Assembly (NCBI GenBank): GCA_038322045.1
Contig: JBBQFP010000001.1
Span: 38,409-102,408 of the forward strand
Source of the DNA: Actinomycetes bacterium
Lineage (GTDB): Bacteria; Actinomycetota; Actinomycetes; JBBQFP01
DNA: 64,000 bases
Reading direction: 5' to 3'
A model generated the notes under the pieces. It ran no database searches, was not told the DNA's origin, and was given only the letters and a program-made list of their open reading frames with translations. Made by a program: the position numbers and the translations under genes. Below, one piece after another: positions 9,472 to 63,540 of this stretch (positions within the stretch are counted from its first letter, which is position 1; each line of letters opens with the position of its first letter).

Positions 9472-10458
9472 GTGACCGTCAGCGCCGACGAGATGAGCCT
9501 CGCCGAGCTGTCCGGCACGGTGGGCCGGATCCGCGCCTGCGTCGAGGGGGTCATCGAGGGCAAGCCCGAGGTCGTCCGGATGGCGCTCACCGTCCTGCTC
9601 GCGGAGGGCCACCTCCTCGTCGAGGACGTCCCCGGCGTCGGCAAGACCATGCTCGCCAAGGCCCTGGCACGCTCCATCGACTGCACGGTGCGCCGAGTCC
9701 AGTTCACCCCGGACCTCCTGCCCAGCGACATCACCGGCGTCAGCGTGTTCAACCAGGAGCGGCACGACTTCGAGTTCAAGCCCGGCGCCGTCTTCGCCAA
9801 CGTCGTCGTCGGTGACGAGATCAACCGGGCCTCGCCCAAGACCCAGTCCGCGCTGCTCGAGTGCATGGAGGAGCGGCAGGTCACCGTCGACGGCACGACC
9901 TACGTCCTCGACATGCCCTTCATCGTGCTCGCGACCCAGAACCCCATCGAGATGGAGGGCACGTACCCGCTGCCCGAGGCCCAGCGCGACCGGTTCATGG
10001 CTCGCATGTCCATCGGCTACCCCTCCGTCGAGGCCGAGCTGGCGATGATGGACACGCACGGCTCGAGCTCGCCCCTCGAGGACGTCGAGCCGGTCGCCGA
10101 CGCCCGCGAGGTCGCCAAGCTCATCGAGACGGTACGCACGGTCCACGTCTCGGACCCGGTCCGCCGCTACGTCGTCGACCTCATCGGCGCCACCCGAACG
10201 AGCCCGGACCTCCGGCTCGGGGCCTCACCACGCGCGACCCTCCACCTGCTCCGGGCCGCACGCTCCGCCGCCGCCCTCGACGACCGTGACTTCGTCCTCC
10301 CCGACGACGTCCAGGGGCTCGCCGTCGCCGTCCTGTCCCACCGGCTCCTGCCCACGGCCGAGGCGCAGATCGCCCGTCGCACCCCGGAACGGGTTGTCGA
10401 GGAGCTCCTCGACTCGATCCCCGTGCCCGGGGGTGCCACCCGCGGCCGGCGCGACTGA
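9472..10458 (+). CDS. moxR: MoxR-family AAA+ ATPase
   Basis: 328-aa ORF with GVPGVGKT (Walker A), VVVGDEINRA (Walker B) and ATQNPIEMEGTYPLPEAQRDRF. GTG 9472 is preceded by GAGGAG. Confidence 0.93.
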   Translation: MTVSADEMSLAELSGTVGRIRACVEGVIEGKPEVVRMALTVLLAEGHLLVEDVPGVGKTMLAKALARSIDCTVRRVQFTPDLLPSDITGVSVFNQERHDFEFKPGAVFANVVVGDEINRASPKTQSALLECMEERQVTVDGTTYVLDMPFIVLATQNPIEMEGTYPLPEAQRDRFMARMSIGYPSVEAELAMMDTHGSSSPLEDVEPVADAREVAKLIETVRTVHVSDPVRRYVVDLIGATRTSPDLRLGASPRATLHLLRAARSAAALDDRDFVLPDDVQGLAVAVLSHRLLPTAEAQIARRTPERVVEELLDSIPVPGGATRGRRD

Positions 10459-56959: not shown

Positions 56960-58216
56960 TCAGCCGCTGAGGTGCCAGGTCGCGCCGTCGGGGGTGTCAC
57001 GGACCTCGACGCCGACGGCGAGCAGGCGGTCACGCACGAGGTCCGACGTCGCGAAGTCCTTGTGCGAGCGGGCCTGCGCGCGCAGCTCGAGGAGCAGCTC
57101 GACGAAGGGCCCGACGACCTCGCGCGGATCTGCGACCCCGGCAGCCGCGGCCTCACCGAGCCGGACGACCATCGCCCGCAGCGCTCGGCGGGCGTAGGCG
57201 TCGTCCCCCTGCTGCATGTCGCTGGACCAGTCCTGTAACGACTGCTCGAGGTCGAGCGCTGCTGCGGCTGCGACGTCGGCGTGCCGCTCCGCGAGCCCTG
57301 CATCGAAGGCGGCGCGCGCCTCGTCGGCGACCCCTCGCAGCGACATGACGGCGTGCTCGGTGCGGCCAGCGGCGTCAGGGTCCGCGGGCGTGGGCACCGG
57401 AGCCAGGCCGCCGCGGTCGTCGTCGCCGTGACCCGCGAGTCGCTGCGAGAGCTCGTCGAGACCGAGCACCAGCCCGCTCTCGAACCAGCGCGACCGGCCC
57501 TGCGCACGCACCGTGAGGCCGCCGGACCCGACGACCTCGGCGGTGCGACCCACGAGGTCGATGACCACGGCCGTGTGCTCGTCGACCCCGAGGACGCCGG
57601 TCCCCTCGGGCAGCTCGGCCTCGAGGGTCTCGAGGCGCCGCTGCCCGAGGTAGCAGAACCTCGTGTCGTAGTGACCGCCCTCGTTGTTGTCGTAGTGCGG
57701 CACGACAGCGGCGCTCAGGCCGGCGAGGGTCTGCATGAGGTCGAGCCCCTCGAGCCAGCAGGGGTCCTCGCCGGCCTTGTAGATCTCGTACACCGGGATC
57801 GCGTGCGAGCCCGCGAGGACTGCTGCCGCGCTGCCGAGGACGAGGGTGCCGCCGCCGGACGCGACGTCGGCCAGTGCACCCGGGACCGGAGTGCCCACCC
57901 ACTGGCGCAGCGCGTAGCTCGGGCTGCCGGGGCCGGCGAACGCCCAGCGCGCGGAGTGCAGCACCGCCAGAGCCTTCTCCTGGTCGACCGTGGCGGCGTC
58001 CCGGCGCCGCCACGACGCGACGGTCACCTCGCGGCCGACGCTGTCGGAGAAGTACGCCCGCGTCTTCTCCACGAGGTCGTCGGCGTTGGCCTGGAAGCCG
58101 AAGGGCGTGTCGAGCAGGGCTGCGGTGCCTGCTCCGAGCTCGTCGAACAGGCGCCGGTGCAGGCGCACCATCGTCGGCGCGGTCTCGCCGGAGCCCATGA
58201 GCACGAGCCGGCTCAT
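56960..58216 (-). CDS. Conserved hypothetical protein; N-terminal amidotransferase/peptidase-S51-like region and C-terminal CysRS-C-terminus-like segment
   Basis: ATG 58216 forms an ATGA overlap with the upstream stop. The N-terminus reads MSRLVLMGSGETAPTMV...FAGPGSPSY. The C-terminus, HKDFATSDLVRDRLLAVGVEVRDTPDGATW, matches the KDWAxADxxRDxLxxxGIxLEDxPxGTxW tail of cysteinyl-tRNA synthetases. Confidence 0.8.
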   Translation of the reverse strand: MSRLVLMGSGETAPTMVRLHRRLFDELGAGTAALLDTPFGFQANADDLVEKTRAYFSDSVGREVTVASWRRRDAATVDQEKALAVLHSARWAFAGPGSPSYALRQWVGTPVPGALADVASGGGTLVLGSAAAVLAGSHAIPVYEIYKAGEDPCWLEGLDLMQTLAGLSAAVVPHYDNNEGGHYDTRFCYLGQRRLETLEAELPEGTGVLGVDEHTAVVIDLVGRTAEVVGSGGLTVRAQGRSRWFESGLVLGLDELSQRLAGHGDDDRGGLAPVPTPADPDAAGRTEHAVMSLRGVADEARAAFDAGLAERHADVAAAAALDLEQSLQDWSSDMQQGDDAYARRALRAMVVRLGEAAAAGVADPREVVGPFVELLLELRAQARSHKDFATSDLVRDRLLAVGVEVRDTPDGATWHLSG

Positions 58217-59082
58217 GCCGCAGCCTCTTCGGCGCGCGCGGCGAGTGCCAGGAGCTCGGCTGCGCACCTGTCAGGGTGCTGCGCGTGCAGGTCGTGGTCG
58301 GCGCCGACGTACCACGACACCTCGGCGTCGGGCAGCGCGTCGAGGGCACGCACGACAGGACCTGACGACGGCGGCTCGTCGACCGCGGCCATGACGAGCA
58401 CAGGGACGTCGGCACGGGGGTAGAGGGCGCTCGGGTCGTCCTGCCACAGCGAGTGAACAATGCTTCGGTGGTGGTCGCGCGACAGGTGCGCCCGCACCGT
58501 CCCGTCGGGAGCGACGCGGAAGTTTGCCAGGGCGCCGTCACGGCTCTCCTGCGGCCAGTCAGGGTGCCACTGCTGAGACCAGGTCGTGACCTGATCGGCC
58601 GTCACGTGGTCGAAGCGCGGTGGGGCCAGGACGTCCCAGCACTGCTCGAAGGAGGGGAACTGCTCGGCGAGGTGGATCCAGCCGCCGTCGACGAGTGCGG
58701 CACCGGCGACGCCGCCGTGCAGCGCCACGAGCGTCAGGACGACGTTGCCGCCCCAGGACTGACCGGCGACGACGGGGGCGCGCCGACCTGTCCACCCGAG
58801 CACGCTCATCAGTGCTGTCAGGTCATCGGCAGCGGTCGCGGTGTCGTACCCCGCGGTGGTCTCCTCGGAGCGCCCGTGGCCACGCTGGTCGACGGCGACG
58901 ACCTCGTGCCCCGCAGCCGCGAGCCGGCGCGCCACCGGGCCCCAGAGGCCAGCATTGCTTGCGAGCCCGTGGACGAGGAGGAACGGCCGCTTCTCGCCGC
59001 CGGCCCGCCGCAGCGCCAGCCGCGGCCCGCCCGGCAGGTCGACGACGTCGTCACGCAGGTCGGGGAGCTCCGGGGATGCCAC
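58213..59082 (-). CDS. Alpha/beta hydrolase
   Basis: 289-aa ORF with FLLVHGLASN, the GQSWGG nucleophile elbow and a C-terminal ADHDLH. Confidence 0.88.
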   Translation of the reverse strand: MASPELPDLRDDVVDLPGGPRLALRRAGGEKRPFLLVHGLASNAGLWGPVARRLAAAGHEVVAVDQRGHGRSEETTAGYDTATAADDLTALMSVLGWTGRRAPVVAGQSWGGNVVLTLVALHGGVAGAALVDGGWIHLAEQFPSFEQCWDVLAPPRFDHVTADQVTTWSQQWHPDWPQESRDGALANFRVAPDGTVRAHLSRDHHRSIVHSLWQDDPSALYPRADVPVLVMAAVDEPPSSGPVVRALDALPDAEVSWYVGADHDLHAQHPDRCAAELLALAARAEEAAA

Positions 59083-59091
59083 CGTGGAAGG

Positions 59092-60009
59092 CTAGGCGAC
59101 GGTCTCGATCCCCACCAACGCGAACGACCCGGGTGCCACGTCGGTCGTCGCCCGGCAGGTCAGCCGCCGTGGAGCAGTCGTCGAGGGCCGGACGAGGACG
59201 ACGACCGGCTGCTCGCCCCCGAGGAGCACCCGCCAGCCGCCGTCACGGCTCGAGGTCACCTCGAGCACCGGCAGATCGTCGAGTCGCACCCGGTCGAGAG
59301 CCCGCATGGCGTGGACCTGGGCGGCCTGCGCGGCCGGCGGCAGGGAGCACCGCCCTCGCAACCAGCGCGGGGAAGCCAGGCCCCGCTCGTGCGCGGCGAG
59401 CACGTCGACCGCGGAGGCCGGGTCGAGCCCCCCGTAGTACAGACCCTCCGGCAGGACGACGACGTTGGCCGCGAACCGGTCGCCGCCGACGTGCGAGCAC
59501 TCCCACACCTCGCCAGGGTGCAGCGCGGCCAGCGCGGCGACGACGGGTCGGCCGCGCGTCGCGCAGCACGTGTCGTGACGCCCGTTGGTGCACACGAGGA
59601 CGAGCGACCTGTCGTGCGGGTCGCCGGTGCGCCCATCGAGGGGCAGTGCGAGCAGCTCCTCGTCGCGGCGGAACCTGCCCGAGCGCACCGAGGTGCGGCC
59701 AGGTCGTGTGTCGACGGCGAACCAGGCGCGCTCCTGGCCCACGCCCGGTGGTGCGCTGGCGTGGCGCCCTGGTCGCCGCAGCAGCAGGAGCCGCACGCCC
59801 GCGTCGCGGCACCGGCGGGCGAGCGCGAGCCCGTGGGTCGGGTCGAGCCGGGACTCGACGACGGGGTCCCAGCCCCACGGCCCGGGCTGCTCGACAAGGA
59901 GGAGGCGCCGCACGACCATCGCGGTCCCGGCGAGCGCGTCGCCGTGCTCGCGCGCCAGCACCGAGCAGGCACCCGCGGACAGTCGGGGCAGGCTCTGCGC
60001 CCGGCTCAC
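59092..60009 (-). CDS. Sucrase/ferredoxin-like (thioredoxin-like [2Fe-2S]) family protein
   Basis: 305-aa ORF with LVCTNGRHDTCCATRGRP and WECSHVGGDRFA (cluster-ligand-type Cys/His). Its start overlaps the cupin stop (ATGA). Confidence 0.75.
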   Translation of the reverse strand: MSRAQSLPRLSAGACSVLAREHGDALAGTAMVVRRLLLVEQPGPWGWDPVVESRLDPTHGLALARRCRDAGVRLLLLRRPGRHASAPPGVGQERAWFAVDTRPGRTSVRSGRFRRDEELLALPLDGRTGDPHDRSLVLVCTNGRHDTCCATRGRPVVAALAALHPGEVWECSHVGGDRFAANVVVLPEGLYYGGLDPASAVDVLAAHERGLASPRWLRGRCSLPPAAQAAQVHAMRALDRVRLDDLPVLEVTSSRDGGWRVLLGGEQPVVVLVRPSTTAPRRLTCRATTDVAPGSFALVGIETVA

Positions 60010-61271
60010 CGACGAGTGCGGACGTCGACGTCGAGGACGAGCACTCCCTCGACGAGGAGCCGTCGACCGAGGACGACGGCGTCGTCGGCCTCGAGCCCGG
60101 CGTCGGCGAGCTCGTGCCGACCGCCGTCGAGGAGCACCGTGAGGCCCTCAGCGAGAGAGCCGGGCAGGGTGAGGGTCCGGTCGGGCAGCGTCAGGCGCAC
60201 GCTGTCGCCCGCGAGCTCCTGACGGAGCAGCAGCCCTCCGCGTCGACGCACAGCGGTCCGCACCGTGAGGCTTGGCAGCGCCGAGGCGGTCGCCAGGGGC
60301 GACAGCGGCGAGGGCCGGGTGCGCGGCAGGACGCGCGCCGCGAGCCGAGGGACCACCGAGGACGCCTCGGTGGTGGCGAGCCGGCGGACCATCGCCTCGA
60401 TCGTCTCGGCGATGAGCGGCTCCAGCGCCGCGTCGTCGCCGAGGTCGAGGCCCGCGGGCAGAGACAGGCGCAGCGCAGGGTCCTCGGCGAGGGCAGCGAC
60501 GACGAGCTCGACGACGTCCCACCGGGTCACCGGGTGGACGCCGAGCGTCAGGTGCGCTGAGACCTCCCCGAGCGCCTCGGCCGCGTGGAGGTAGCCGCGC
60601 GGCAGGTACAGGCAGTCCCCCGGCTGGAGCTCGACGTCGAGCAGCGGCGGGGTGATCGCACGGGCAGCCACCGCCTCGGCGTGACGCGCCCAGGGCTGGT
60701 CGCGCAGGGGGGCGTCGAGCACGGGCGCCCAGACCTGCCACCGCTTGCGCCCGGCCGTCTGGAGGACGAAGACGTCATGGACGTCGTAGTGCGCCGAGAA
60801 GCCGCGGGAGGACGGCGGGGTGATGTAGGCGTTGGCCTGGACGGGGTGCCCGAGGTCGGCAGTGAGCGTCGTCGCGAGGTCGATCACCGGGGGCCACAGT
60901 CGGTGCAGGCCCTGGAGGACGACGGTGGCCCCGTCGGCGAACAGGGCGAGGACCCGGTCGTCGGCGACCTGGTCGCCGATCTCCGCCCCGGCGCCGCCTC
61001 CGCGGGTCCACCGGCTCGGGTCGATGACCGTGCCGTTCTTCGCGATGCGCAGGAACGGGGTCCTCAGCCCGCGGCGGGAGAGCAGCTCGTCGACGTCGGC
61101 GAGACCGAGTAGCCGGGAGAAGTCCTCGGGCAGCTCGTGCGCCCGTGACAGGTGGGGCTGCTTCCCCCAGACGCCGGAGAAGAAGTCCTTCGGCGCAACG
61201 CTGAGGAGACGACGGAGCGCCGGGCGGTCACGGATGACCGCCCGGTGCGAGTCGTCGAGCTCTGCGGTCAG
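60006..61271 (-). CDS. JmjC/cupin-4 family 2-oxoglutarate/Fe(II) oxygenase (YcfD/RoxA-like), non-canonical start
   Basis: The facial triad is present: SAHYDVHDVFVLQTAGRKRW (HxD) and LYLPRGYLHAAEA (His). Conserved N-terminal sequence (PALRRLLSVAPKDFFSGVWGKQPHL...RGLRTPFLRIAKNG...) lies upstream of the first GTG (60887). That frame has no ATG, GTG or TTG back to the stop at 61293-61295. CTG 61271 (AGGAG-N7) is taken as the start. Confidence 0.8.
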   Translation of the reverse strand: MTAELDDSHRAVIRDRPALRRLLSVAPKDFFSGVWGKQPHLSRAHELPEDFSRLLGLADVDELLSRRGLRTPFLRIAKNGTVIDPSRWTRGGGAGAEIGDQVADDRVLALFADGATVVLQGLHRLWPPVIDLATTLTADLGHPVQANAYITPPSSRGFSAHYDVHDVFVLQTAGRKRWQVWAPVLDAPLRDQPWARHAEAVAARAITPPLLDVELQPGDCLYLPRGYLHAAEALGEVSAHLTLGVHPVTRWDVVELVVAALAEDPALRLSLPAGLDLGDDAALEPLIAETIEAMVRRLATTEASSVVPRLAARVLPRTRPSPLSPLATASALPSLTVRTAVRRRGGLLLRQELAGDSVRLTLPDRTLTLPGSLAEGLTVLLDGGRHELADAGLEADDAVVLGRRLLVEGVLVLDVDVRTRR

Positions 61272-61564
61272 ATCCCTGCTCCTGCACCGCCGTCAGCGCC
61301 GCCGTCAGCCCCGGCACCGCCGTCAGCCCCGGCACCGCCGTCGGCGCCACCGTCGTGACCGCCCGGGGTGCCCTGCGCCCCGCCGTCGGCCGGACCCTCA
61401 GCACCGCCGTCGGCGCCACCGTCAGCCCCGGCACCGCCGTCAGAACCGGCGCCGCCGTCGGCGCCACCGTCGTGACCGCCCGGGGTGCCCTGCGCCCCGC
61501 CGTCGGCCGGACCCTCCGCGCCACCGTCCGCGCTCGTGGTGATGTCGTCGTCGCTCAGGGACAT
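61268..61564 (-). CDS. Acidic Gly/Asp/Ala tandem-repeat protein (98 aa), hypothetical
   Basis: ATG 61564 is preceded by GAGGAG-N5. The unique N-terminus, MSLSDDDITTSADGG, has 100% GC3 in its first 13 codons. A 39-aa unit follows (AEGPADGGAQGTPGGHDGGADGGAG[S/A]DGGAGADGG), present in about 1.8 copies. Alternative frames in the repeat are also open, so the frame assignment rests on the N-terminus and RBS. Confidence 0.5.
   Translation of the reverse strand: MSLSDDDITTSADGGAEGPADGGAQGTPGGHDGGADGGAGSDGGAGADGGADGGAEGPADGGAQGTPGGHDGGADGGAGADGGAGADGGADGGAGAGI
61302..61516. repeat. 117-nt tandem duplication (about 1.8 copies) with nested 18-nt sub-repeats
   Basis: Positions 61337-61399 are identical to 61454-61516 (63/63 nt), and the flanks 61302-61336 match 61419-61453 with only 3 mismatches. 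The period of 117 nt equals 39 codons. Confidence 0.9.
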
Positions 61565-61843
61565 GGCGTCTCCTCGTGCTGGGGGGCCGCCCGCCGTCCG
61601 GGGGGCTGCTGCGTCCCTACCCTGGCCGATCACGGCTGAACGCGCTACCGCGAGGCGCCGACCCGAGCCTGGTCACCGCGCCCCGCGAGGAGCAGCCATG
61701 ACCTCGACGACGCCGACGACGCCCCAGCCCGCCGGCCCCCGGCCCAGCCTCGGATAAACGCGTCCGACATCGGCCTCCCCTCGGAGGCCTACCGACGGGT
61801 AACGTGGGGTTCGACGAGCAGGTACCGCGACCGGCAGGCGGCC

Positions 61844-62779
61844 ATGGCAGAGCACCCCGACGAGGCGCAGCGCGACGACGCGTCGGACGACGAGTCGCTG
61901 GAAGGTCCCGCGCTCGCCGACGTGCCCGGCTACCTGGTCAACCTGCACGGCCACGACCTGTTCTACCTCAAGGCCGGCACCGGGCCTCCGCTCGTCCTCC
62001 TCCACGGGGTCCTGTGCAGCGGCAACAGCTGGCACGAGCTCGTCGACGACCTCGCCCAGGACTTCACCGTCATCGCCCCCGACCTGTTCGGGCACGGCCA
62101 GTCCGCCAAGCACCAGGGCGACTACTCCCTCGGCGCCCACGCCGGCGCGCTGCGCGACCTCATCGACCATCTCGGCATCGGCTCCACGACACTCGTCGGG
62201 CACTCCCTCGGCGGCGGTATCGCCATGCAGTTCAGCTACCTGTTCCCCGGACGGGTCGAGCGGCTCGTCCTCGTCGACTCCGGCGGCCTGGGCCGCGAGC
62301 TGTCGTTCATGCTCAAGGCACCCGCGATCCCCGGTGCCGAGCTCGTGCTGCCGGTCCTCGCGTCCTCGTTCGTCCGCAACAACGGCAGCGCGCTCGGTCG
62401 GGGGCTTCGGCGGCTCGGCCTCGGCAGCCCCGACGTCGCCGAGGCCTGGGCTGGTTTCACGACCCTCGGCAACGCCGACGCGCGTCGGGCGTTCCTCTCG
62501 ACGATCCGCAGCGTGGTCGACCCCGGCGGTCAGACCGTCGACGGCCGCGACCGGCTCTACCTCATGGCCGACATCCCGCTGCTCATCGTCTGGGGCGGCA
62601 GGGACCGGCTCATCCCCGTCCGGCACGCGCACGAGACCCATGCCGCCATCTCGGGCAGCCGGCTCGAGGTCTTCGAGAAGGCGGGGCACTTCCCGCACCT
62701 CGCCGACCCCGCGCGCTTCGCCGCGCTCGTGCGCGACTTCGTCAGCACGCCGCGCGAGCAGCAGGCCGACGTCGGCTGA
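61844..62779 (+). CDS. Alpha/beta hydrolase
   Basis: 311-aa ORF with LVLLHGV, the GHSLGG nucleophile elbow and GHFPHL. Confidence 0.9.
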   Translation: MAEHPDEAQRDDASDDESLEGPALADVPGYLVNLHGHDLFYLKAGTGPPLVLLHGVLCSGNSWHELVDDLAQDFTVIAPDLFGHGQSAKHQGDYSLGAHAGALRDLIDHLGIGSTTLVGHSLGGGIAMQFSYLFPGRVERLVLVDSGGLGRELSFMLKAPAIPGAELVLPVLASSFVRNNGSALGRGLRRLGLGSPDVAEAWAGFTTLGNADARRAFLSTIRSVVDPGGQTVDGRDRLYLMADIPLLIVWGGRDRLIPVRHAHETHAAISGSRLEVFEKAGHFPHLADPARFAALVRDFVSTPREQQADVG

Positions 62780-62836: not shown

Positions 62837-63397
62837 TCACGTGCCGGTGGTGAGGTCGACCTCGTCGGTGGTCTGCGTCCCGGCGGTGCGGCCCGGCGCG
62901 CGCTGATGGCTCCAGTAGAGGTTCGTGTGCGCCACGACCTGCTCCGGTGAGGGCGCCCCCCAGGCCGTGAGGTCCTCGGTCGTGTGCGCGTCGCTGACCA
63001 GCGTGGCGTCGTAGCCCCGGACGAGCGCCCCGTGCAGCGTGGAGCGGATGCACGCGTCGGTCTGCGCGCCGACGACGACGAGTCGGCCGACGCCGAGCCC
63101 TGAGAGGACCTGCTCGAGCGTCGTGTCCTCGAAGGAGTCGCCGTAGCCCTTCTCGACGAGCGGCTCCCCGGGGGCCGGGTCGAGCTCGGCGACGAGCTCC
63201 CACTGCTCGCTGCCACGCGGCAGGCGGTCGTCGTGGTGCTGCACCCACACGACAGGGACGCCCTCCTCACGCGCCCGGCCGACGAGGCGCCCCACGTTGG
63301 CGACGACGTCGTCGCGCCGGAAGGCGTCCTCGACGACGCCCCGCTGGACGTCGACGACGAGCAGTGCGGTGCCAGGACGGTCGGTCAGCGTGGTCAC
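62837..63397 (-). CDS. Isochorismatase-family cysteine hydrolase
   Basis: From GTG 63397 the product reads ALLVVDVQRG...VVVGAQTDACIRST (catalytic Cys). Length is 186 aa. Confidence 0.88.
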   Translation of the reverse strand: MTTLTDRPGTALLVVDVQRGVVEDAFRRDDVVANVGRLVGRAREEGVPVVWVQHHDDRLPRGSEQWELVAELDPAPGEPLVEKGYGDSFEDTTLEQVLSGLGVGRLVVVGAQTDACIRSTLHGALVRGYDATLVSDAHTTEDLTAWGAPSPEQVVAHTNLYWSHQRAPGRTAGTQTTDEVDLTTGT

Positions 63398-63540
63398 GGG
63401 CGCTCCCTGTCGATCAGGCTGGTCGTGCGGGTTGTCGACGGAACCCTGGCACGGTCCTCCGACAATCCGCACCCACCGACCGGGACGACCGCCCGCAGGA
63501 CACCGGCGACCCGAGGGCTCTCGCCTCTGTCGCCGCCGCG

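Follow-up and report, generated by a model that had tools for sequence, protein, structure and literature searches.

A NO66-like oxygenase gene preceded by an acidic repeat gene in a conserved cassette of Actinomycetota

To characterize an unusual gene arrangement, we analysed a 64,000-nucleotide stretch of the genome of an Actinomycetes bacterium (contig JBBQFP010000001.1, positions 38,409 to 102,408; hereafter the window), in which five co-directional open reading frames (ORFs) occupy positions 56960-61564 of the minus strand, as a preliminary description of the sequence had seen. Three of them form a cassette conserved across Actinomycetota (59092-61575, minus strand), composed of an acidic repeat ORF, a gene for a JmjC Fe(II)/2-oxoglutarate (2OG) oxygenase of the NO66/ROX type and a gene for a ferredoxin-like protein. 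The remaining two, encoding an alpha/beta-hydrolase and a cyanophycinase-like/CysS_C protein, form a separate conserved pair (56960-59082, minus strand). Our reading of the region, to which we give a probability of roughly 0.55, is that two independent units lie side by side and that the first would comprise a repeat client, its hydroxylase and a redox partner, with the hydroxylase translated by re-initiation at a CTG codon.

The conserved three-gene cassette

Upon scanning one genome per GTDB species with an alignment of the oxygenase, we recovered at least 80 actinobacterial loci, and all five window proteins were searched by tblastn in 80 oxygenase loci; 77 loci, each with more than 200 nucleotides (nt) of upstream DNA, were informative for the repeat ORF. 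A same-strand Asp/Gly-rich ORF lies immediately upstream of the oxygenase gene in every one of these 77, a recurrence that places the arrangement beyond chance, and searches starting from repeat proteins led to Salinispora, Rhodococcus and Streptomyces contigs on which the oxygenase gene again lies immediately downstream. The ferredoxin-like gene directly follows the oxygenase gene in 73 of 80 loci, mostly through an NTGA overlap of stop and start. The preliminary description had tied the repeat polypeptide to a protein hydroxylase and a putative redox partner on the strength of one locus; the tie is borne out by the upstream position of the repeat ORF and the stop/start geometry in all informative loci, and by the ferredoxin-like gene that usually follows. 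Any further neighbour recurs in at most 12 of 81 loci, where it reflects clade-specific housekeeping synteny, and no leader protease, exporter/transporter or recognition element is conserved with the cassette across the same 81. One cassette, in Streptomyces sp. NPDC059398 (L088:2042-7305), lies directly downstream of a zinc-independent alternative ribosomal protein cluster (S14, L28, L33, L31, a CobW_C/COG0523 protein and S18); none of the other 87 loci shows this neighbourhood, which may hint at a connection with the ribosome or with zinc.

The repeat ORF (61268-61564, minus strand) runs from ATG 61564 to TGA 61268 and encodes 98 amino acids (aa), with G at 40 positions, A at 20, D at 16, S, T and P at four each, and I, E, Q and H at two each (isoelectric point (pI) 4.05, net charge -18). 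This count agrees with the low residue diversity and two His first reported, as does the presence of a strong ribosome-binding site, a Shine-Dalgarno GAGGAG at 61570-61575 (minus strand), 5 nt before the ATG. An MSLSDDDITT N-terminus is followed by EGPADGGA-QGTPGGH-DGGADGG units, and the ORF contains a 117-nt (39-codon) tandem duplication (61284-61517, minus strand; copies 61284-61400 and 61401-61517). Although initially called exact, the duplication is 95% identical, and five of the six differences between its copies are synonymous third positions in the repeat-ORF frame, whereas the same six would alter five residues in each other frame. The repeat ORF is a real gene to judge by these differences, mostly synonymous in its own frame alone, by the retention of the protein, N-terminal motif included, across many genera, and by a strong Shine-Dalgarno motif in the window and in nearly all of the 64 orthologous loci checked (GGAG-type, ~5-9 nt before ATG or GTG). 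At orthologous loci the ORF is present and in frame.

In the family alignment, the N-terminus reads M-[AS]-[LIF]-[DNS]-D-D-D-[MI]-[TS]-[TS] and the unit E-G-P-A-D-G-G-[AS]-x(1-4)-G-[H/Q/S/E/T]-D-G-G-A-D-G-[GST]-A, a repeat of 21 residues with invariant E, D, G and A positions that is often extended by (DGGA)n runs and whose amino-acid conservation spans orders. The Asp of EGPAD and of DGGADG is invariant across the family; the position preceding DGGADG may be H, A, G, S, T or Q. Family members range from 56 to ~230 aa and are almost devoid of K, R and hydrophobic residues, and the repeat protein is predicted by AlphaFold to be disordered and looks cytoplasmic, being without a signal peptide. 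In Kribbella (L016, L040, L043, L047, L062, L078), the repeat proteins are 170-225 aa long and contain additional inserts rich in Gly, Ser and Tyr; each terminates in ...GNSGSW or ...EGSGSW.

Searched against Pfam and NCBIfam, the window repeat protein and five orthologues hit no family, yielding just trivial low-complexity matches to staphylococcal SD-repeat adhesins. A family profile matches only 126 representative clusters among 1.84 billion proteins, labelled “hypothetical” or, rarely, “BatC protein”, and the window product is missing from a 15-billion-protein collection in which its three neighbours are present. The repeat family and the cassette were not found in the published literature searched by topic and by peptide motif, and the survey of bacterial JmjC neighbourhoods by Iyer and Aravind does not mention the cassette. 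The repeat family, the way it is obligatorily paired with a ROX enzyme, and the CTGA start that, as described below, recurs at their junction thus appear to be new, as judged from their absence from Pfam, NCBIfam and the literature searched, which accords with the initial failure to match the locus to a described system; the oxygenase and the ferredoxin-like protein belong to known families.

Within the 200 nt upstream of the repeat ORFs (64 loci), two hexamers are enriched, GGGTAG (in 22 loci, against 3 of the control) and TAGCGT (in 14, against 0); these motifs, which fall at ~61580-61680 in the window, are probably -10-type promoter elements (TAnnnT). The motif search upstream of the repeat ORFs recognised no metalloregulator-like box, the 5′ leader of the repeat ORF folds no better than shuffled sequence (z=-0.35), and Rfam, promoter and terminator scans of 56-63 kb returned nothing meaningful. 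The GC-rich repeat is also an assembly hazard: the repeat ORF is interrupted in L075 (~9500-9700) by a run of N and in L011 (~9700-9950), one of the 77 informative loci, by an assembly frameshift, and L064 (~9940-10010) has a probable indel between the repeat-ORF stop and the oxygenase motif, where a DPELQ segment is read in another frame than in three other Modestobacter loci.

The second gene (60006-61271, minus strand) would encode an oxygenase of 421 aa if begun at the CTG discussed below. Pfam assigns the product to JmjC_2 (7e-26, 90.6 bits vs a cutoff of 22) and also to Cupin_8; human NO66 aligns from residue 25 (PDB sequence search, 8.5e-22), and more than 6,300 homologues (~415 aa), with a common N-terminal DRPALRRC motif, match from about residue 15. 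The AlphaFold model (predicted local distance difference test, pLDDT, 85.8) is ordered over residues 14-416, with values of 72-96 in the N-terminal region from residue 14 on, a helical middle (280-334) and a beta/alpha C-terminal domain (340-413). Compared by Foldseek, it resembles NO66 (E 8.7e-26, template-modelling (TM) score 0.56, 450 alignment columns) and next MINA53 and YcfD. The Fe triad (H161-x-D163, H229), invariant in 33 sequences, corresponds to NO66 H340, D342 and H405, and the invariant, putatively 2OG-binding K176 (GRKRW) to NO66 K355 (GRKLW; numbering via the alignment offset), so that the original identification of a YcfD/RoxA-like 2OG oxygenase with an intact triad stands. Invariant Y149 aligns with Tyr328 of NO66, a substrate-contacting residue (PMC9994133); unlike NO66, which has Ser421, the family carries an invariant Gly (G244).

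The oxygenase thus shares with the ROX enzymes (NO66/RIOX1, MINA53/RIOX2, E. coli YcfD/RoxA and Rhodothermus YcfD) a full-length three-domain fold, the HxD...H triad, the 2OG-binding Lys, and the NxYxTPP motif and strand-8 HxT motif that are hallmarks of the group (PMC9994133; PMC2938197). It differs from them in its setting, as a hyper-acidic repeat gene always lies in front of its gene, with a geometry that predicts translational coupling, and a ferredoxin-like gene usually follows, whereas known ROX members have ordinary starts and basic ribosomal targets encoded elsewhere in the genome.

The third gene (59092-60009, minus strand) encodes a Suc_Fer-like protein of 305 aa (pI 9.6), from the family of thioredoxin-like [2Fe-2S] ferredoxins of the yeast Apd1/Aim32 type. 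Residues 130-206 match Pfam PF06999 (2.9e-16, 60.5 bits vs a cutoff of 34.9), the C-x7-CC and H-x-G-G positions of the family are kept, and conservation across 68 orthologues is 90% or more at C140, H145, C148, C149, H173 and C285. Unlike the family, the protein matches just this part of the profile, and its cluster is putative; a sequence search of the structure database returned no solved-structure relative.

The repeat/oxygenase junction and the probable translation start of the oxygenase

In the window, the repeat ORF and the oxygenase gene meet in CTGA (61268-61271, minus strand), the TGA (61270-61268) overlapping a CTG (61271-61269). The oxygenase gene in turn meets the ferredoxin-like gene in GTGA (60006-60009, minus strand), its stop overlapping a GTG start. 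The preliminary description had given ATGA for this second junction; its CTGA, its 9-nt gap between the ferredoxin-like and hydrolase genes (between 59092 and 59082, minus strand) and its ATGA between the two genes of the separate pair (58213-58216, minus strand) were correct. The oxygenase frame opens at 61292, just past a stop, and offers no ATG, GTG or TTG until GTG 60887, which confirms that the first 128 codons lack all three. These codons are nevertheless intact, contain no stop and share 57-67% identity with the closest orthologues, and the N-terminal 128 residues must be translated because homology to NO66 begins at residue 25 and the region is ordered in the model. The public annotation, a product of 293 aa from GTG 60887 (60006-60887; P0001), would drop a third of the fold. 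Sequencing error does not account for the missing start, since an independent Logan assembly from another run (L082), 99.9% identical over 2,427 nt, has the identical CTGA junction. In the nearest other species (L081, 67% identity), the repeat ORF ends in ...CGC TGA, again with a CTG in the oxygenase frame. An internal AGGAG (61279-61283, minus strand) lies 7 nt before the window CTG and is formed by codons 94-96 of the repeat ORF, which uses GCA and GGA nowhere else.

Junctions were parsed at 77 loci (76 GTDB loci and the window). An ATG, GTG or TTG for the oxygenase lies within 15 nt of the repeat-ORF stop in 47 of them, 19 as canonical NTGA overlaps and the others at -8, -11 or +3 to +14 nt, and a canonical start lies farther from the stop in 13. 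Ordinary GTG or ATG starts are therefore frequent among relatives, yet always with the upstream repeat partner. The remaining 17 loci, the window among them, reach the DRPALRR motif without any canonical start: in 13, again counting the window, a CTG overlaps the stop, and in L045 and L074 this CTG is the only near-cognate codon; in the other four the two ORFs share one frame and a CTG lies 15-18 nt past the stop.

The identity of the overlapping start also sets this junction apart. NTGA occurs at the repeat/oxygenase junction in 43 of 77 loci, with C in 24, G in 17 and A and T in one each. At the oxygenase/ferredoxin junction of the same loci, frames overlap in 50 of 74, 46 of them as canonical NTGA, and the first letter is G in 29, A in 14, T in three and C in three, plus one CTAA. 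C-type overlaps are accordingly over-represented at the former (24/43 vs 4/50; Fisher p=7e-7). The last sense codon of the repeat ORF is usually Ala (GCC or GCG), so GTGA could be reached by a silent change, and its frequent absence suggests that a strong start is unnecessary here, or even undesirable.

Among Geodermatophilaceae, the distance from the stop to the oxygenase motif takes seven lengths (47-101 nt), and the CTG stays in frame in 10 of 11 loci, as expected if the stretch codes from CTG. A codon-position test of the tail from CTG to DRP gave a weak third-position excess (76 vs 59 and 54), which fits a disordered tail but is not decisive. In one Kribbella locus (L078), the oxygenase frame runs from a GTGA junction through ~160 codons of Pro/Gly/Ser/Asn/Leu-rich repeat to the DRPALRR motif, a stretch that would be a long low-complexity N-terminal extension.

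Termination-reinitiation coupling has been demonstrated (PMC6728339), the NTGA overlap is its commonest motif (PMC12548453), and coupled gene pairs reportedly often encode interacting proteins (PMC10666635). The junctions described here share with known NTGA coupling the -4 nt overlap, mostly without a separate Shine-Dalgarno motif (PMC6728339, PMC12548453); they differ in having C in 24 of 43 overlaps and, in 13 loci, CTG as the sole plausible start. The coupling reviews and papers examined describe no gene family with near-cognate CTG as its regular re-initiation codon. Re-initiation at CTG is, on this comparative evidence, the best-supported reading of the missing oxygenase start. Ribosomes finishing the repeat ORF would re-initiate on the oxygenase gene at the overlapping stop/start, in the window at a weak CTG (61271-61269) aided by the AGGAG in the end of the repeat ORF, and the ferredoxin-like gene would be coupled likewise through its GTGA. 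Such an arrangement would deliver the enzyme in small amounts and solely when the repeat protein is made, giving a low enzyme-to-client ratio.

Proposed function of the repeat protein and rival explanations

We propose that the repeat protein, with EGPADGGANPGGHDGGADGSA as a candidate substrate peptide, is probably the client of the hydroxylase, that is, its dedicated substrate, and that the ferredoxin-like protein may serve as an accessory redox partner, for example by keeping the oxygenase iron reduced. The hydroxylated residue would more probably be the invariant Asp than the variable His, since Asp is invariant, His is variable and JmjC enzymes such as FIH can hydroxylate C-3 of Asp or His (PMC9994133); Asp C-3 hydroxylation at many repeated sites is our preferred guess. 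The JmjC enzyme FIH (factor inhibiting HIF), which hydroxylates Asn, Asp and His within ankyrin repeats, exemplifies the type of chemistry proposed, but its substrates are folded and not genetically coupled to it, and its structural similarity to the oxygenase is lower (Foldseek E ~4e-9, TM 0.34). A His in a Gly-rich context presumably recalls the substrates of NO66 and MINA53, which offers a lead rather than a test.

Pairs of a precursor and a hydroxylase are also found among peptides made on the ribosome and modified after translation (RiPPs), where CinX and DurX carry out Asp beta-hydroxylation of cinnamycin and duramycin; JmjC enzymes, too, occur in RiPP clusters. As in such pairs, the gene for an Fe/2OG oxygenase is directly preceded by a small ORF, whose product begins with a conserved segment and continues in repeated units that resemble a core. 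The cassette departs from RiPP clusters in having no conserved protease, exporter, RiPP recognition element or immunity gene; the repeat protein departs from their precursors in being 56-230 aa long, fully disordered and cytoplasmic-looking, with no signal peptide; and, unlike the variable RiPP clusters, the cassette occupies a position of housekeeping synteny across hundreds of species. A more specific version, tentative and on balance unlikely, would make the repeat protein a dedicated non-ribosomal substrate for a NO66-like enzyme that hydroxylates the many Asp and any His it contains, yielding a cytoplasmic poly-(beta-hydroxy-Asp) polypeptide that acts as a metal buffer or a sensor of oxygen, iron or 2OG, served by a [2Fe-2S] redox partner and a sub-stoichiometric, CTG-initiated enzyme.

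Several observations weigh against the client proposal and against CTG re-initiation. To our knowledge, every ROX enzyme characterised so far (YcfD, NO66, MINA53) hydroxylates a ribosomal protein, at C-3 of His or Arg, and the proteins acted on are basic, not acidic; the sole bacterial substrate type known to us for JmjC/ROX enzymes is Arg81 of L16 (YcfD-type), and we know of no link between the Suc_Fer-like family and JmjC enzymes. The ferredoxin-like gene is not beside the pair in 7 of 80 loci, nor in Salinispora and Rhodococcus, and is therefore not obligatory. The oxygenase is not basic (pI 6.1; family median 5.8), so that it offers no evident electrostatic complement to a client of charge -18, and an AlphaFold model of the joined repeat protein and oxygenase gave no docking signal, with residues 1-110 below pLDDT 50, a weak test given that the repeat part had no alignment. 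His, the residue hydroxylated by NO66 and MINA53, is missing from 22 of 77 repeat proteins, and its site is variable. At the junction, L065 has a spacer of ~300 nt between repeat ORF and oxygenase gene, some start-less cases (L064, L011) may reflect indel errors in the GC-rich repeat, and CTG initiation, interaction of the repeat protein with the oxygenase and hydroxylation are what we infer from sequence. Furthermore, most GTGA and CTGA junctions have no Shine-Dalgarno motif, which would nonetheless fit termination-reinitiation (PMC6728339, PMC12548453).

The rival accounts of the junction fare less well. That the repeat ORF is mainly a regulatory upstream ORF, delivering ribosomes to or tuning the oxygenase through a functionless peptide, would suit the strictly conserved stop/start geometry and the weak or absent starts that make the oxygenase depend on upstream translation, and -4 nt-coupled regulatory ORFs are known (PMC12548453); we nevertheless regard it as unlikely, since the N-terminal motif and 21-residue unit are conserved at the amino-acid level across orders, the duplication copies differ synonymously, and 56-230 aa with strong Shine-Dalgarno motifs exceed what ribosome delivery would need. 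The preliminary description had offered, beside re-initiation at the CTGA, a fusion of the repeat region to the oxygenase, here by programmed -1 frameshift or readthrough; the first alternative has become the best supported, and the second retains a minimal likelihood. In the window, the oxygenase frame does lie at -1 to that of the repeat ORF and stays open over the 21 nt that precede the repeat-ORF stop, and 18 loci have both ORFs in the same frame with a single stop between, but the 24-nt overlap (GGC GGT GCA GGA GCA GGG ATC TGA) contains no X XXY YYZ heptamer and frame relations 0, -1 and +1 all occur among loci, -1 being commonest, so that no single recoding mechanism fits. Moreover, 60 of 77 loci have ordinary starts, mostly beside the stop, and there is no clean natural fusion among 1.84 billion representatives; the long database proteins P0409, P0377, P0393, P0402, P0403 and P0405, which start with the repeat motif and run on into oxygenase-like sequence, were rejected as natural fusions because they are mosaics of in-frame and out-of-frame stretches derived from frameshift-ridden, error-rich assemblies. 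It is similarly hard to credit that the missing start is an artefact, namely an indel in the GC-rich repeat, or that the oxygenase is a pseudogene with at most the 293-aa product from GTG 60887. Difficult assembly of the repeat (the N-run of L075, the probable indels of L011 and L064) and the NCBI annotation of just the 293-aa version would favour this, and it is opposed by the identical junction in the independent assembly L082, the CTGA also present in the nearest species (L081), the 13 loci with CTGA and no canonical start, and the stop-free 128 upstream codons, conserved at 57-67% and lying within the JmjC fold.

Two further alternatives concern what the cassette does and how far it extends. 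The repeat protein could be a partner of the oxygenase rather than its substrate, acting as adaptor, chaperone, mimic, inhibitor or metal (Fe/Zn/Ca) buffer, with basic ribosomal or nucleic-acid-binding proteins as the real targets. We hold this possible, if doubtful. The ribosomal targets of characterised ROX enzymes, to which the oxygenase is a full-length structural homologue, the fact that the oxygenase is not basic overall, the unconserved His position of the repeat protein and the one Streptomyces cassette beside an alternative ribosomal protein cluster with a CobW-type metallochaperone all favour it, and coupled pairs reportedly often encode complex subunits (PMC10666635). However, that neighbourhood occurs at just 1 of 88 loci and no ribosomal gene is among the conserved neighbours; small genes directly 5′ of a tailoring enzyme usually encode its substrate, and many identical repeat sites suit a multi-site substrate. 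As for extent, the preliminary description had joined all five genes into one system, which could be imagined as a peptide-maturation operon with the hydrolase and the S51-like (cyanophycinase-like) protein as processing peptidases. Tight packing in the window (the 9-nt gap and the ATGA overlap) and the hydrolase-like folds of both extra gene products speak for such an operon, but it is very unlikely, as the co-conservation found is that of three genes and not of five: tblastn retrieved the S51-like/CysS_C gene in 0 of 80 oxygenase loci and the hydrolase as two weak partial matches, neither gene follows the cassette in the 67%-identical L081, and no protease or exporter is conserved with the cassette. 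The hydrolase/S51-like pair, moreover, occurs alone elsewhere, with the same 4-nt overlap and no oxygenase nearby, in a Kineosporia (L084, 5075-7305) and on a 3.5-Mb contig of a metagenome-assembled genome (L085, 5144-7251), and for this reason we take the window to juxtapose two independent units, the first being the cassette of repeat ORF, oxygenase and ferredoxin-like gene.

Neighbouring genes and significance of the cassette

In the separate pair, the alpha/beta-hydrolase gene (58213-59082, minus strand) encodes 289 aa matching Pfam Abhydrolase, and its neighbour (56960-58216, minus strand) a protein of 418 aa with a weakly cyanophycinase-like N-terminus and a CysS_C C-terminus. The latter has more than 7,400 homologues and carries the JGI label “cyanophycinase-like exopeptidase”. 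Its N-terminus matches the NCBIfam cyanophycinase model at E=1.7e-4 (21 bits vs a cutoff of 126.6) and PDB 6nqc at E=0.038, and a Pfam scan found no peptidase S51 match. Of the domain assignments first put forward, profile searches thus upheld JmjC_2, Suc_Fer-like, Abhydrolase and CysS_C and lent peptidase S51 weak support. A peptidase-like domain fused to the anticodon-binding tail of cysteinyl-tRNA synthetase constitutes an uncharacterised family. Upstream of the cassette and divergent from it lies a second alpha/beta-hydrolase-like ORF (61844-62779, plus strand, 311 aa), and beyond that an ORF that by eye resembles isochorismatase/cysteine hydrolases (62837-63472, minus strand).

The results also expose an annotation gap: the repeat family is mostly missed by pipelines, with 126 clusters found vs thousands of oxygenases, and in the source genome the repeat-ORF product is absent from the protein set and the oxygenase is annotated as 293 aa. 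The recurrent CTGA provides a comparative case of near-cognate CTG re-initiation that could be useful for start-codon models of high-GC genomes and for gene callers. Overall, the cassette points to an undescribed protein-modification module, whose function we infer. With a candidate client encoded alongside a large actinobacterial branch of oxygenases (more than 6,300 protein clusters), the question of bacterial JmjC/ROX substrates becomes directly testable. If the repeat protein is poly-hydroxylated, it would represent a new kind of modified bacterial polypeptide, and if the poly-(beta-hydroxy-Asp) reading is true, the cassette would constitute a phylum-wide, unannotated post-translational modification system of Actinomycetota.

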